This document shows, in pieces, positions 883 to 52,723 of a stretch of DNA of 64,000 nucleotides (positions are counted from its first letter, which is position 1; each line of letters begins with the position of its first letter). This DNA comes from Euglena gracilis. Lineage: Eukaryota. The notes under the pieces are model-generated. The model searched no databases and had not been told where the DNA came from. It was given only the letters and a program-made list of their open reading frames with translations. A program made the translations under genes and the position numbers. Where the stretch lies: contig CP154954.1 in NCBI GenBank assembly GCA_039621445.1, positions 25,804,954-25,868,953 on the forward strand, given 5' to 3'.

Positions 883-7180
<6,298 letters not shown>

Positions 7181-14857: not shown

Positions 14858-17800
14858 TTACATTCTGAAACAAACCCTCACCCTCGCTCTGAAGGCCTCC
14901 ATCTGACTCCCTGATATACAGAAAGGTTCAGGAGCACGTAGAAAGACCGGGGTCCGGTAGGGACACACCGCCGCCGGGGAGAGACTGAGGTCCTCATCTG
15001 AGGAGGAGGACCCCGATGACGTCGGGCGGCTGCTCAGCAGCTCCCCCAGACTGCTGAGGCCGTCTGAGGCCGCCGGGGAGACGTATCCCTCGGACAGCGT
15101 GCCCGGGGGCTCGTACAGCGACTCCGCTGTACTGGGCGGCTCGTACAGGCTCTCCGCCTCGGGCAGCTCCAGCGCCGGCCATGCCGGTTGCACCGCAGGC
15201 GCCTGCACCACCGCCGCCTCGGCCGCGGAGGAACTGGGCTCCTCCGGGGTGAACCGCACCCGGCCCTCCACCGGGGACTCCTCAGCAGGCCTCATACCCG
15301 GCGGTGCAGGTGCTGCTGCAGGTGCTGCTGCACGGGTTTCCGCACGGGCCGCCGCCTCTGCGCGGGTTTCCGCCTGCCCGCTGGTCGCCGGTTCGACGTC
15401 CCCCGGAGGCGTAGGGCTGCGGCGCCGCCGCTGCCGCTGGTGGAGGAAGTTGTCCATCGCCCGCTGGCGACGGGCGAACTCCTGGGGGTCCACCGGCCTG
15501 ACGTTCTCCCGCATCCAGACCAGGATGTCGGGGGTCAGGGCCCGGCCGCTCACCAACGTCAGGAGGGAGGTCCGCATCAGGGCCTCCAGCGCCCGGACGT
15601 CCACGATCTCCGGCAGGATGGGCGGGGACCCCCACCGGGGGAACTCCACCTCAGAGGCGTCCACCCAGGCGATCCGCGTGGCGTCCACCCGGCGGGGGAA
15701 GGGGCGGCCCTCGGGGTGGTCCGCCAGCTGGCGCACCCGGTGGGTCATCTCGGCGACCAGTCCCAGCCGCAGGGAACCCCGGCTGGCGTGCGGCGCCCCC
15801 GACGGCGGCGGCAGGCCGAGGAACAGCTGCAGGGTGCCCCGGAAGTCCGTGACGTACGGCGACCGACGGCAGGCACCTGACAGGCGCGACAGCATCGCCT
15901 CGCCGGCCTCCTCAACGAAGACGCACCCGGGCAGGCGGGACATCCACGGCTGCCAGGTCAGCAGGGCCAGGGAGATGGTCCGCATGTACTCCGAGGGGAG
16001 GCCATGCGGACTCATGGCCCGCTCGAGGTGGGCCTGCAGGACCAGGCAGCGCTCCAGCACCTGCCGCGCCGTCTCCCCCTTCACCTCGTCGTCGGGGCGT
16101 CCGCGCCAGGTGCACTGCCGCACCTTGAAGCCGAGGTGGAGGAGGGCCGGCAGGAAGAAGGTCAGGAGGCGGTGCAGCCCCAGGAGCAGCTGCGGGCCGT
16201 ACGCGTCGGCCGCAGTGGGGGCGGAGACGTGCACGCGCTGGCTCTCCTCCCGGAGAAGAATCTCCAGGTGACGTCAGAGTGACAGATGAGCTTTGGAAGT
16301 GTCTTCACCCAAAGTTGGCCTGCGTGACCTATCACCAGGGTCCTTTACGCGGGTTTCCGCACAAAGCGGACAGACTGTGACGGACAGAAGGGAGAGATGT
16401 GACACCAAGTGACCCACGACATGACTGTGCGGATAACCGCACGAACATTGGTCCGATGTACCAGGTGCAGCCTGAAAGCAGCCAGCTCGGGCAGTGGTCA
16501 CCCTGGCTGGGGCAGCACGTCGGCCCGGGTCAACAGGAGGCTGGCGAACAGCTTCTCCATGTACAGCACCTTCCGGTGCGACCGCAGGGACGTCGTGAGC
16601 TGCCGGCTGCCCCCGGCGCCAACCGGCACCTCCAGGTGAGCCAGCACCGGGAAGAACGCCCGGTACACCACCGTCACCGTGTGCTTGTAGGCATGCCAGA
16701 TGCCGTACAGCAGGGGGACGTTGGCGAGGTGCTCCCCCATCCGGAAGCGCAGCGCCGGGGCCGAGTACAGGAGGCGGAGGATGCGGTAGTGGATGTTCTC
16801 ATCCACCAGGAGGGGCAGCTGACGGCCCGACCGCGCCTGCAGCTGCAGCACGGTCTCCAGGAGCTGGAGGAGGTCCCGGTTCGAGCTGACCGTCTGCTCG
16901 GTCAGGGAAAAGGGCCTCCACCGCAGCGACCGCATCGCGTCCCGCTGCATGTCCAGCGGGACGCGGACGTTGTCCACCGAGAGCTCCGCCCGGTGGAGGC
17001 CGCGCACCGCCTGGTGCAGCTTCTTCGCCGACTGCAGGCACAGGTCGGCCGCCCAGCGGAGGTGCTGCACCACCGTCCCGAACTCCGGGTGACCCGTGGA
17101 CACGGGGAACGTCACGGACCGCGTCAAAGTGCCCTGACGAGTTCGCAGGGGGTCAATCTGCAGCAGTCACCGCACAGAGGGCCTGCTCACTGAGCCAACC
17201 AGGCACATACATGTACGCATACACAACCCTGAAGTGTGCGGGTTTCCGTACAAACCAACACTGATTACACGGAAACCCGTACAAACGCGTCTGACAACCA
17301 CCTTTGTACTGAACCCTGTACACACCTTGGGGGATGTTCAGCTCTGTTCTCACCAGTGTCGTCGTTCACCTGTCCCTTGTCACCAACTGTGTCACCCCAA
17401 CTCGAGGTGTTCTTGAGCAGTTCATTCATTCAGTGCATTTTACAAGACAGAACATTCCCAGGCGGAAAACTGCGCAAGTCTTGTCATGCACGGATGGTCA
17501 TCAGGTCAGGCCCACTTCGCCAACAGCAGAAGACAGAGTAGGCACCCTGAACCCAGGGCGGTGACGTTGCGACTGTAGCTGGGCTGGGTGGGGTCTGTGC
17601 CCCACCGCAGCCAGCAGAAGTTGTCCAGCCACAGCACGCACTGGTGGCCGTCCAACGCCCGCAGCACTGCGTCCCGGGCCCTTAGCGCCGCTCCGCACCA
17701 GCTCCTCCGTGGGGCCCACCAGACCGGCGGGCCGCAGCAGTCGACGGGTAGCGCGGGGCAGGTCCTGCAGCGTCTGCTGCGCCGGGGCGGGGGCCAGGGC

Positions 17801-21449: not shown

Positions 21450-30743
<9,294 letters not shown>

Positions 30744-34500: not shown

Positions 34501-35112
34501 CGAGTGCTGTGCTTTGTGCATATTCTTACTGACACCGTAGTGTCTTTGTAGACTTGACTCTTGGAGATCAACGTGTTATCGACCACCCTTAAGGGGATTC
34601 TGCCGCAGAGTCTTCAAAAGGAGTTAAAGGCGATGATTAAATGCGTATTCACGCTCGAGAACTCGCTCATTATGTGGGACGCCGCTCATTTCAGCCGTGG
34701 CTGAGTGTACACGGCAGGGAACCCTCAGCGTTTGCGGGTTTCCTTGAAGAACCTACCCATGTCTTGGTCTTGTATCAAGGTCACCTCCATTGAACAGAGG
34801 TCTGGGGTATATATCACGAGTGCTGTGCTTTGTGCGTATTCTTACTGACACCGTAGTGTCCTTGTAGTCTTGAATCTTCGAGATCAACTGTGTTATCGAC
34901 CACACTTAAGGTGATTCTGCCGCACATTCTTCAAAAGGAGTTGAAGGCGATGATTAAATGCGTATTGCTCATTATGTGGGACGCCGCTCATTTCAGCCGT
35001 GCCTGAGTGTACACGGCAGGGAACCCTCAGCGTTTGCGGGTTTCCTTGAAGTACCTACCCATGTCTGGGTCTTTTACCAAGGTCATCTCCATTGGACGCA
35101 GGTCTGGGGTAT
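34501..35112. repeat. Diverged tandem duplication of about 300 bp (34501-34810 and 34817-35112)
   Basis: Both copies start CGAGTGCTGTGCTTTGTGC and end GGTCTGGGGTAT. Confidence 0.9.
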
Positions 35113-46249: not shown

Positions 46250-47000
46250 GGAACCCGAGGTCCAAGGCACGGAACTCTGGGCTGATGAACAGACGGAGGT
46301 AGGACTGGAACCCTCAACAAAAAGCACATACTTTTTGAACGCGGATAATACCGTCCGCACATCGCGATAATGCACGTCCAGGATATCCTTGCCCGATTTC
46401 GCAGATGGCGGTTGGTTTCCCGCCAGTACACAATCGATGTACACCAGAGCAAACGGTAAATCGCGCAAAACCCACTGGATCATGCGTTGAAACATGGCTG
46501 GGCCATTCTGAACACCCATGGGGAGTTAAGTCCATTGGTACACACCCTTGGATGTCACGAATGCAGTTTTCGGTTGTGAATCAGGATGCAAATGCATCTG
46601 ATGAAAACCGTCTTCCAGAACAAAGATCGACTACAATCCGTTATCCTATTTTCTGGTTATCAACTCTTCGATCAGAGGAAACGGGAAGGGTTCATCCTTA
46701 AATTATGAGTTCAGGTACCGGTAATCCAGAACCTGCCTCCACTTCTTCTGACCAGACTGTTGAGGGGTTTGGGCACCACAAAAGCCTGTGATGTCACTCG
46801 CTCTTGGAAGGGTCGCGATTTTCGTGGTGTACTGGATAACCCAGTTTACGCCTGCGAACATCGACCCCGCGATTCGCGGTCCCTTCGGTGTTTTCAAAAT
46901 TGAGCTCAAGGATGGTGCTAAGCCCATGCACCGGAAACTGTTCAGTTTTTCAGGTGAACGCAAACAAGCTCTCAACCAGATGCTTGAGAAGCTCATATGT
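46250..47000 (-). pseudogene. Ty3/Gypsy-like reverse transcriptase fragments, rearranged
   Basis: Minus strand: KKWRQVLDYRYLNS (46705-46750) and PMGVQNGPAMFQRMIQWVLRDLPFALVYIDC (degenerate YxDD). The RT N-terminal piece FKIELKDGAKPMHRK is on the plus strand (about 46830-47000). Confidence 0.8.
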
Positions 47001-47118
47001 GGCCTTGGGGTGTTGACCAGCACTCTCAATGACTGCAGAAATTTGTGTTGAGGGTTTGGTTGTATCCCCATTGGTACCAAGGGATCTTGGCACACGCAAA
47101 TCGGACATTCGGAATGTG

Positions 47119-47500
47119 TCAAAGAAACAAACACAAAAAAATTTTTTCTTTAATGGGTGGTAATAATATGTCACAAAAATCAGCAGGTAAATCCCACCAA
47201 CGAAAACACACATAGGACAAATTTGGAAGCCAATCCGTATTCGGATTGACGGGTATGAGGAGAGCTCCTCGCGCTTCATCGCGGAAATTTTTCCCCAATA
47301 CAACCAGGATGAGTTTTGGGGGAGGGTGCATCCAAAGCACCCTAACGCCCCAAAATTTAATAAATGCGTTGGTGTGTCGGGGCAATATAGCGAGAAGCGC
47401 ACATGCGCTTTTGATGAAAACGCATCAATTTCCAACGACAAATCGAAAAAATCTAATCCGAGTTTTTGGAGAACCATTCCTCAAAAAAAAACGGTATTAA
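47119..47500 (-). pseudogene. Dam-like N6-adenine methyltransferase domain of retroelement (DIRS-MT) type, frameshifted
   Basis: EIDAFSSK..F..Y / NAFIKFW....LWMHPPPKLILVVLGK..RDEARGALLIP.....WLPNL follows the recalled pattern DxFAS...DAF...W...xPP..LI..VL.K....P.W...W.P.L. Confidence 0.65.
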
Positions 47501-48250
47501 CCAAAATGTAATTTGTTCCATACGTACATTACGTATGTGTCGACCTGGTTCGCGGGCTGAAGAGCGATAACACAATTCAGGGATCCGCAAACATAGGTCA
47601 AGGTTGTGTCATCCACACTGCAAAGGGGAAATCCCAAGGGTTGATGGGTTGTCTGAGTGCCTTCCCGGTCCACATTGTGCCAGATGGAGGTGGGGGAGGT
47701 GTGTGACATGGATTTCGCGCTCCCAAACAGCAATGCAATACCTCGTTGCTGTAGCACTTGATGTAACGTCGCGCATTGCGAGGCGCAATCAAGTGTGTGG
47801 GTGGGCGAAAACATGACTAGTGTTGGTGTTTGGAATAAAGATTAGAATTAATAAATTCTTCGACACACTAGAAGGATTAATTAATTTTAATATTAAGAAA
47901 AATTAATTATTCGACACATTAGAAGGAAGTGTCGGAGTAGTGGTCCGGGTCGCGCATGTTGGTCTGGTGGGGGTGTGTGTAAAAGTTGGGACGCGCTTCT
48001 GTAGCTGCTGGGGGGTGTAAAGATGTATCTGAAAGCGACACATCTGGTGGAAAACTGTTTACGTTGGTTGTCACCACCCGCCGTTGGACGGCCACGGGGC
48101 AGCTCATACTACTTGCCGTGGCTCGTCCTCAGGCAGGGAACTGCGCACATGGTCCGGCCAACCAGTGTCTCGTCCATTTGCGCAATTGCGCGCGCCGAAC
48201 GATCCCCGCGGTATGCCCTCTGCCCGTAGGGATCCTTCAGGACTCACACG

Positions 48251-48322
48251 GCGGGACCTGGGTCTCGAACCCACGACCTCCCGCGTGTGAGCCCAGCACC
48301 TTACCGAATAAGCTACTCGAGC
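48251..48322 (-). other. tRNA-derived segment within the LTR (not a functional tRNA)
   Basis: The minus strand reads GCTCGAG TAGCTTATTCGGTAAGG TGCTGGG CTCACAC GCGGGAGGTC GTGGGTTCGAGACCCAG. It shows an A box/D-loop, a CAC anticodon-like loop and a B box/T-arm. The acceptor and anticodon stems pair poorly. Confidence 0.7.
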
Positions 48323-48940
48323 GATACTCGGCTTGGTACTACGCGCCGGCTACCAACCTCCGTAGGATCTCCCGTCTGCCGCACACACTCCCCTCCCAAG
48401 AGCCTTACTACACTAGCCCACTGCGTCACTATGGCCGTTGCCCCTGCAGCTCGGGTTATGCCTCACACGGCCCTAGTTGGCTGAGTGCTTCTCACGAGTA
48501 CTGCGTCACCAGGCTGCCGACCCCTGCAGCTCGGGTTTGCTATTGCCGGCAGTTTACGTGTTGTCGACTTCAACGGGCTCTGCCGCCTTGGAGCGTCCCC
48601 CTTTGCATCGGCTTGAGACTTTGGAACGGTGTAGGAGTTTCAGTCGCCCTAGACTCGGCGCGTCCGCCTCCGCCTTCCGGGCGCCGTGGGGTCAGGCTCT
48701 GATTTACCGGTTCGTGTTGCATTAGACGGGTTCCCCTGCTACGATGTTTACGTTGGTTGTCACCACCCGCCGTTGGACGGCCACGGGGCAGCTCATATTA
48801 CTTGCCGTGGCTCGTCCTCAGGCGGGGAACTGCGCACATGGTCCGGCCAACCAGTGTCTCGTCCATTTGCGCAATTGCGCGCGCCGAACGATCCCCGCGG
48901 TATGCCCTCTGCCTGTACGGGATCGTTCAGGACTCACACG

Positions 48941-49012
48941 GCAGGACCTGGGTCTCGAACCCACGACCTCCCGCGTGTGAGCCCAGCACCTTACCGAATA
49001 AGCTACTCGAGC
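48941..49012 (-). other. tRNA-derived segment within the second LTR
   Basis: Copy of 48251-48322. Confidence 0.7.
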
Positions 49013-50460
49013 GATACTCGGCTTGGTACTACGCGCCGGCTACCAACCTCCGTAGGATCTCCCGTCTGCCGCGCACAAAAACCTGGTATTGGTGCTGCTG
49101 GGCGACTACGCGACACCGTACCTACTTCAGGCCTTCGGGATTTCGACTTGAAACCCAGTGGAACGAGGGGGACACCGCTGCTCGCTTACCCTGCCTCATG
49201 GGGTACGGTAGTTGGTGTAACAATGGGCATGGGGGTAACTTTCTCGGTCCACCGGGTGTAGAAAACGTTTGTAGGTATAGTTGGTAACGGGGAAAATCTT
49301 TTTGGAAAACGGTATAGAAACGGTATGGTCGTCGCGGTTGACGCCACAGGTGATGAGAGTTTGTGGGGCAACGAACAGAATGGTGATGTGCGCAACCCAT
49401 GGGAGTGCCAATCCACTACCAGCCGGTGCTGACATAAAAGGGGTATCCCAGAATTACTTCAGAACCATGGATTCCGGATTTATATCCCCATGTATCTGGA
49501 AAAATTTGCGGGTGGGGGGGCGTGTGTGGTGCTTTGGGAGGAGGGATAGGAAAAAATGTTTGAGCAGAGTGGGATAAAACGGAGGAGGAAAGAAATGTGA
49601 AAATGAATTAAATTGAAAAGGTCCATATTTTACGCAATGAGATTATGTGAATAAACAACAACAAAAATGGCAATGTCACACCTGTCCTGCCAAAACGGAC
49701 ACCTCACAAAACGTAAAACCTGCAGAAAATTCATCGGGAAATCAAAATGTTTTTCGAATGTGAACAGGACTGAGCGAGAAGTTTTTTTTTAACCATTGAA
49801 ACACTGTGTTTGTCTTTTTACTGCCAAGCCTTGATCTTGTGGGGCAATAAAGACAGGAAATGAACATCTTTGACAACAAAGGACGCGTTTTGGAGGATGC
49901 AGATTCCATGATTTACAAAGGAATGTAATAAAACAGGCACTGTGCTGTTTTTAAATTGCAATGCGAACCCAGAAAAGGGTCATAGTCGGTTTAGTTGTGG
50001 ATGCTGATGGCAATGGCAGTACAATATGAGTGACTACAATTTCTTGGGCTCTGGGTTTGGGTTTGTATCTGGGGTCCTTCAAATTTCGGTGCTGCTTCCT
50101 TGTGTATTCCATTGCACGTACTGGGACGGTGGTGGATAAAGGGCAGCGGAGACATTCATTTCTGCGCTTCATTGCGCTCCCTGGGTGGGGATGGAGGGAC
50201 AAAGACCCAAGCGCACCCTCACCCGCTCATTTGCGACCCACTCCCGCCGCACCGTTTGCCCGACGCCATTCGCTGACTGCAGCCAATGGCCGTCCGCCAA
50301 CCCCTCCCCAGTGAGGTCTGCCGGCGTCCGTTGCAACACAACCGTCAGGGCGGGGTTTGATTGTCGGGCTTTCCATCCAGTACAGGCCACGCGCCACCCG
50401 AACTGTTCCTTGGGCCGCACTACTGGCCGCGGGATGTGTCTCGAAGAAAATCCCCCCGGC

Positions 50461-52407: not shown

Positions 52408-52723
<316 letters not shown>

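Follow-up and report, generated by a model that had tools for sequence, protein, structure and literature searches.

A high-copy TRIM-type retrotransposon with a tRNA-like segment in each long terminal repeat fits the structure of Helenus elements

Introduction

[quoted passage not shown] The closest described systems are those that Kojima (2024, PMC10886601) unites in a proposed group, TRIMp3, which comprises Helenus, Ajax and Cassandra; here and below, statements on that work refer to the passages of the article and its supplement that are drawn on in this comparison. In these passages, Helenus elements are TRIMs with tRNA-derived sequence in their LTRs, found in Pucciniales and some Agaricomycetes, in six animal phyla and in Selaginella, and they are proposed to have arisen several times, through insertion of a SINE of the SINE2 class into an LTR. 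Ajax is a TRIM with partial 5S rRNA, from two nemerteans, and Pol III use is described as validated for Cassandra only. In fungal Helenus, 5-bp target-site duplications and priming by initiator-Met tRNA are tied to Copia partners (PMC10886601). Here, we analyse a 64-kb stretch of DNA (the window throughout) in which an element at positions 48056-49077 carries a tRNA-like segment in each of its two LTRs, and we compare this element with the systems above.

Results

Structure and borders of the element

The sequence at 48056-49077 is very probably a real TRIM-type, non-autonomous LTR retrotransposon, a judgement that concerns the identity of the element alone. The best explanation for the locus as a whole goes further: we see a slightly better than even chance that this TRIM-type element belongs to a high-copy family with a decayed tRNA-derived head in each LTR, of the Helenus (TRIMp3) kind, and that the head has a promoter role. 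The element is 1022 bp long, and its sense strand is the minus strand of the window. As an initial annotation of this DNA had noted, it has two LTRs of about 332 bp with few differences: they measure 332 and 333 bp and are 97.9% identical, separated by 6 substitutions and 1 single-base indel, and both start with TG and end with CA on the plus strand. Its parts, together with the basis on which each was placed, are as follows.

48051-48055, no strand: left copy of the target-site duplication, AAAAC on the plus strand, read directly; a single copy at paralogous empty sites (DNA contigs)
48056-48387, minus strand: 3' LTR in the sense of the element, 332 bp, TG..CA; repeat comparison with 48745-49077
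48250-48322, minus strand: tRNA-like segment of the 3' LTR, with box A at 48315->48304 and box B at 48271->48261; Rfam tRNA and box pattern
48388-48397, minus strand: polypurine tract GGGAGGGGAG, 10 nt, all purine, adjoining the 3' LTR; read directly
48388-48744, minus strand: internal region, 357 bp, non-coding; repeat comparison and absence of Pfam matches
48727-48744, minus strand: primer-binding site TCGTAGCAGGGGAACCCG, adjoining the 5' LTR; read directly
48745-49077, minus strand: 5' LTR in the sense of the element, 333 bp, TG..CA; repeat comparison
48940-49012, minus strand: tRNA-like segment of the 5' LTR, with box A at 49005->48994 and box B at 48961->48951; Rfam tRNA and box pattern
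49078-49082, no strand: right copy of the target-site duplication, AAAAC on the plus strand, read directly

The defining features of a TRIM are all present: short direct LTRs, a primer-binding site and a polypurine tract at the right junctions, a target-site duplication, and no gag or pol coding. The three stop-free frames of at least 110 aa that overlap the element match no Pfam family, and within the internal region 48420-48457 recurs, imperfectly and in direct orientation, as a second 38-nt copy at 48500-48537 (84.6% identity over 39 aligned columns). At 1022 bp, the element is slightly over the screening cut-off of <1000 bp used by Kojima and inside his reported range (PMC10886601).

We compared positions 47000-50100 with contigs of two DNA sequencing runs, X1 and X5, and of two RNA-labelled runs, X17, which is RNA by guess only, and X19, a leaf-litter metatranscriptome. 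A subset of these contigs (9 in X1, 18 in X5 and 1 in X19) follows the left flank to position 48055 and then continues into non-LTR sequence, in which 26 of 30 positions, compared by eye, agree with the right flank (49083-49112). These contigs are sister copies of the host repeat that contain one AAAAC and no element. Because the sister copies show the target site uninterrupted, the borders of the element and its 5-bp duplication are real; the TG..CA ends, the 5-bp duplication and the polypurine tract of the initial annotation can each be read directly from the sequence, and the empty sites add support for insertion. The same evidence bears on the idea that the locus is not a transposon at all, but arose by local duplication, tandem or segmental, or as an artefact of assembly. 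It suits this idea that the 64-kb window contains neither a second copy nor a solo LTR. However, the TG..CA ends, the 5-bp duplication, and the primer-binding site and polypurine tract at the right junctions all speak for an LTR element, and the empty paralogous sites, together with thousands of independent contigs from several runs, already contradict the idea, which we consider very improbable.

Abundance of the family

The family to which the element belongs is high-copy, of the order of 10^3. At identities of at least 90%, the 3.1 kb from 47000 to 50100 matched 3,883 contigs in X1 and 5,394 in X5. Summed depth over the internal region amounts to 208,197-275,654 in X1 and 372,812-397,810 in X5, while depth on the single-copy stretch 49600-50100 is 78.1 and 153.9, respectively; the ratio comes to about 2,400-3,500 single-copy equivalents, which, as summed depth is not a copy number, we take to indicate an order of magnitude of 10^3. 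Depth on the flanks (47000-49500) is similar to that of the element, which indicates that the insertion lies within a second abundant repeat. Differences in depth between parts of the LTR are not taken as a measure of conservation, since contig depth gives no ranking of the parts within a stretch. Of 24 contig pieces inspected, out of more than 9,300, three span the tRNA-like segment completely and continue into LTR sequence at either end, each from a different run (X1 record 7, X17 record 9 and X19 record 12); as far as these pieces go, the reading of the initial annotation is thus not refuted by other family copies lacking the segment. In X1 record 7, the segment is kept in a copy with 16 mismatches in 160 positions (about 90% identity).

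The tRNA-like segment

Each LTR contains one tRNA-like segment of 73 nt in the sense orientation of the element, starting at LTR position 66 in the 5' LTR. When 131 nt of either LTR were searched, tRNA was the top Rfam family and aligned over model positions 1-71 of 71, with 16.9 bits for 49012->48940 (E 0.27) and 15.8 bits for 48322->48250 (E 0.54). Scaled by arithmetic to the tRNA family alone and to both strands of the whole window, the expectation value is about 0.03 (0.27/4227 x 64000/131). The covariance-model alignment has U33 and A37 in place and CAC at the anticodon position. Both LTRs contain box A (TAGCT..CGG) and box B (GGTTCGAGACC) in forms that agree with the motifs defined for Helenus. 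The combined pattern of box A, spacer and box B has two matches in the 64 kb, both in the LTRs, and appeared in none of 100 shuffles; box B alone has three matches, against 0.67 expected. Judged from these motifs, the segment would resemble the decayed tRNA head of a SINE, in which promoter boxes and arm motifs are kept and stems are eroded. The initial annotation had called it a tRNA(Val-CAC)-like segment, and of this the sense-oriented tRNA likeness with boxes A and B stands; the valine call does not, as ARAGORN at -ps80 folds the stretch as Pro-AGG, so that the Val (CAC) isotype is not robust.

The surrounding sequence has a strong predicted fold of its own. A 111-nt stretch, 49030->48920, which consists of the segment and 18-20 nt on each side, forms two strong hairpins at -58.5 kcal/mol (z -6.37); none of 200 shuffles was equally stable. 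A counterpart of this two-hairpin stretch (48920-49030, minus strand) lies in the other LTR. An exact 24-nt piece of the tRNA-like segment had no match in metagenome, viral and prokaryote-genome collections.

RNA-labelled contigs and the primer site

Contigs of the family occur in both RNA-labelled runs, which come from two studies. X17 contains one 614-nt family contig. In X19, a 661-nt contig runs from internal region through LTR to internal region again, covering 48238-48927 with a joint that leads back by 690 positions, the combined length of the internal region and one LTR. This joint may stem from a circular form, from a cycle in the assembly graph or, as in Cassandra or LTR-11_DR, from a tandem array. 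The sense strand of the element contains no TTTT and no TTT, so that read-through by Pol III would be possible.

The primer-binding site of this copy has TCG in place of the canonical TGG. At position 48743, where the difference lies, the family majority is C on the plus strand by nearly all or all of the depth (92,529.5 of 92,598.3 in X1 and 236,548.4 of 236,548.4 in X5). The majority base implies that the normal primer site of the family begins with TGG and that the mutation is private to this copy, which also differs from the family majority at 48439, 48572, 48706, 48718 and 48914. The tRNA end complementary to the primer site, ...CTGCTACCA, we take to be initiator-Met-like; U72 and A73 are a mark of the initiator tRNA. 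With LTRs that have diverged by 2% and a mutated primer site, we regard this copy as an older and probably immobile insertion, well formed but probably dead. The element had initially been described as intact and young. Its structure is indeed intact, but its primer site, with the private change from TGG to TCG, is not, and "young" overstates the case for a copy whose LTRs are about 2% apart and which departs from the family majority at the primer site and elsewhere.

Weighing the tRNA-derived promoter

Several results weigh against the view that the segment is a tRNA-derived promoter. The scores of 16.9 and 15.8 bits are far under the Rfam gathering score for tRNA, 29, and the covariance-model check that had been suggested for the LTR therefore gave a divided answer, with tRNA as the top family over its full length and a score below threshold. 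A search of the 1.5 kb at 47800-49300 at E<=1 returned nothing, and so no tRNA, 5S rRNA, hammerhead or other ribozyme. In a control stretch at 2180-2380, which contains a lone box-B-like motif, various families scored 10-17 bits in 21 hits. That tRNA was not among them favours the tRNA reading, but because these control families score alike, the tRNA score alone is not significant against the whole library. By count from the alignment, 15 of 21 stem pairs are formed (acceptor 4/7, D 4/4, anticodon 3/5, T 4/5), and the minimum-energy fold of the 73-nt segment is not a cloverleaf. ARAGORN predicted no tRNA in the window, and relaxing it from its default to -ps and -ps90 did not bring one out in the element. 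The contigs from the RNA-labelled runs cannot show RNA start sites or the polymerase responsible, and the flanking repeat is also in X19, which makes DNA carry-over or read-through possible. The absence of T-runs is expected by chance, with shuffles giving a probability of 0.57-0.91 for no TTTT and 0.31 for no TTT. The primer tRNA, finally, was not identified from metagenome contigs that match the 16-nt complement of the primer-binding site: there are at least 115 such loci, and as 0 of the 115 listed lie inside an ARAGORN-predicted tRNA, they are uninformative on this point. Avoidance of T-runs was considered as evidence for Pol III and rejected, since a T-poor base composition predicts their absence.

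Some of these results would be explained if the likeness to tRNA were due to chance or convergence, and the LTRs instead carried a two-hairpin RNA or DNA module with a role in packaging, dimerisation or small-RNA production. The two strong hairpins reach past the borders of the tRNA-like segment, several miRNA-hairpin families score the same as the sub-threshold covariance hits to tRNA, and the isotype call could not be reproduced. We nevertheless find this explanation improbable, because the alignment to the tRNA model is global, the D-arm and T-arm motifs, U33 and a purine at 37 are present, and the combined box pattern is missing from all 100 shuffles. The same layout is, moreover, a documented and recurrent architecture (PMC10886601).

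A more serious alternative accepts the same TRIM and the origin of the segment, but takes the segment to be an inert relic of an old SINE or tRNA-derived insertion, so that the element would owe its transcripts either to RNA polymerase II (Pol II) acting at the LTR or to read-through out of neighbouring repeats. The decay of the segment, with its sub-threshold scores and its 15 of 21 pairs, is in keeping with such a passenger, base composition accounts for the lack of T-runs, and the flanking host repeat is found in the RNA library X19 as well. Pol II is also thought to be usual for TRIMs ('TRIMp2', Kojima 2024, PMC10886601). On the other side, boxes A and B are intact and properly spaced despite the decay of the stems, which is the pattern expected if the promoter, and not the tRNA fold, has been maintained. 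The segment is also kept in diverged copies, at about 90% identity in X1 record 7, and X17 covers the TRIM only and not the flank, which is at least equally abundant. On balance, we hold an inert segment to be unlikely, if clearly more credible than a chance resemblance, and continue to prefer a decayed tRNA-derived head with a putative promoter role.

Sequence context in the window

The window is gene-poor and repeat-rich, with no Pfam match, no Rfam family at gathering score and no tRNA gene predicted by ARAGORN. Its 247 stop-free frames of at least 110 aa include none that matches Pfam, and 13 frames searched earlier likewise gave none; a protein atlas yielded nothing usable either. One 471-aa stop-free frame (14861-16273, minus strand) has 14 relatives with E values from 1e-130 to 5e-41, some of them 720-810 aa long, without a Pfam domain; one relative, on a JGI metagenome contig, is 93% identical. 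This frame represents a real, unnamed protein family that may be encoded by a transposable element.

Repeats of several kinds surround the insertion. The flanks 47000-48055 and 49083-49500 are part of a very high-copy repeat, with summed depth up to 632,704 in X1 against 78 for single-copy sequence, and depth reaches single-copy level by 49600. With many loose contig ends, at 47064, 47285, 47383, 47447, 47532, 47914 and 49436, these flanks appear to be a mosaic of repeats. The AT-rich stretch 47838-47927, which lies just upstream of the insertion, contains a palindrome of 25 nt and a direct repeat of 39 nt whose copies are 79% identical. Farther away, two adjacent copies of 310 and 296 bp lie at 34501-34810 and 34817-35112 (88.7% identical over 311 aligned columns), and inverted repeats of about 295 bp, 75% identical and about 1.6 kb apart, at 24730-25020 and 26661-26954 may represent a terminal-inverted-repeat or foldback element. 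Long TG/CA microsatellites of up to 160 units occupy 52408-52722, 23511-23649, 3834-3981 and 27196-27276.

Discussion

The non-coding body of the element and its LTR-type integration imply that replication must rely on the proteins of an autonomous element. Its reverse transcriptase and integrase would, we propose, act in trans to copy family members; the partner would probably be Copia-like, as judged from the duplication of 5 bp and from a primer site that fits the tRNA 3' end ...CTGCTACCA. Pol III transcription of the element, which the initial annotation had inferred, is plausible, and we put the chances that the head serves as an internal Pol III promoter at about even. In that case, a transcript would start near 49012 on the minus strand, pass through the T-run-free element into the 3' LTR and, by Pol III read-through, extend to the T-run that the target-site duplication forms just past the 3' LTR. 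LTR positions 66-333, which would be found at both ends of such an RNA, could then provide the repeat that strand transfer requires.

Two questions arise here: can reverse transcription of the LTR type use an RNA template made by Pol III, and how does an RNA of this kind come to have matching repeats at its ends if the LTR holds no terminator? An additional abundant family would offer an independent test case for both, all the more so if its host belonged to a eukaryotic lineage new to this group. The boldest version of our proposal, that this is an independently born protist TRIM from outside fungi, animals and plants, possibly with a euglenozoan host, present in about 10^3 copies, truly driven by Pol III and using nearly the whole LTR as its terminal repeat, is in our view doubtful; in this version, the strong two hairpins around the tRNA head may also contribute to processing or packaging. 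Among the papers listed on Helenus and TRIMp3, the titles and openings of abstracts point to no Helenus from a protist. The assembly paper for Euglena gracilis describes LTR elements and 4,882 predicted tRNAs (PMC11252322); none of its passages drawn on here deals with a TRIM element, and the three words in it that begin with 'trim' include trimming software named in its methods. Thousands of tRNA-like LTR copies can distort the prediction of tRNA genes and the annotation of repeats in a host genome.

Among known systems, retrozymes, which carry a hammerhead in their LTRs, resemble the element in size, in an LTR length of about 330-350 bp, in a non-coding internal region and in highly structured LTR RNA, but the element has no match to a hammerhead or other ribozyme family (47800-49300, E<=1). 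SINEs of tRNA origin (SINE2) resemble it in that their tRNA head has decayed and contains boxes A and B. In the element, however, such a head lies inside the LTRs of a structure with a primer-binding site, a polypurine tract and an integrase-type 5-bp duplication, and there is neither a LINE-type tail nor an A-rich 3' end.

The other members of the TRIMp3 group are closer. Ajax, which the initial annotation had given as a tRNA-bearing TRIM of oomycetes, is 5S-derived and nemertean in the passages of Kojima (2024, PMC10886601) drawn on here, in which the tRNA-bearing elements are Helenus and no oomycete is mentioned; Ajax shares the TRIM architecture and the 5-bp duplication with our element and differs from it in the source of the small-RNA sequence. 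Cassandra, a plant TRIM with a 5S-derived LTR segment, carries a Pol III promoter that comes from the gene of a small RNA in both LTRs, as our element putatively does. Its primer site, TGGTA.CAG.. (TGGTATCAGAGC), resembles the family-majority site of our element, and it forms LTR-internal tandem arrays, with which the internal-LTR-internal contig from X19 would fit without proving an array. The promoter type separates the two, being type 1 (5S boxes A and C) in Cassandra and type 2 (tRNA boxes A and B) here, where no 5S match was obtained (Rfam, 47800-49300, E<=1). Cassandra also carries Pol III terminators, and our element contains none.

Helenus itself departs from the element in a few respects. 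In the parts of Kojima's account drawn on here, the longest reported LTR is 323 bp, slightly shorter than the 332 and 333 bp found here, and most fungal Helenus have a primer site for the anticodon loop of the tRNA, whereas the site here corresponds to a tRNA 3' end. By exact-string look-up, none of three element-specific motifs occurs in the published supplement, in which one box-B string, a generic one, was found. Since Helenus is described as having arisen several times, the name can still be applied on structural grounds although no published family is linked to the element by sequence. In other respects, the two agree closely. Both have two LTRs, a primer-binding site, a polypurine tract and no coding capacity, and both carry a sense tRNA-like segment near the 5' end of the LTR, at position 66 here and at 35-45 in the bivalve examples of the supplement. 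Box A (TRGCY..YGG) and box B (GGTTC) have persisted in both, in a tRNA that is itself unlikely to be functional. The 5-bp duplication is that of fungal and plant Helenus, the length of 1022 bp lies within the reported 311-1263 bp, and in copy number the family is comparable to the largest one reported, LTR-11_DR, with 5,575 LTRs and 2,618 internal portions (PMC10886601). The element thus fits the structural definition of Helenus on every point that can be tested, with a tRNA origin of the LTR segment as the probable reading, and is a further example of this kind of TRIM, described in 2024, not a new kind.

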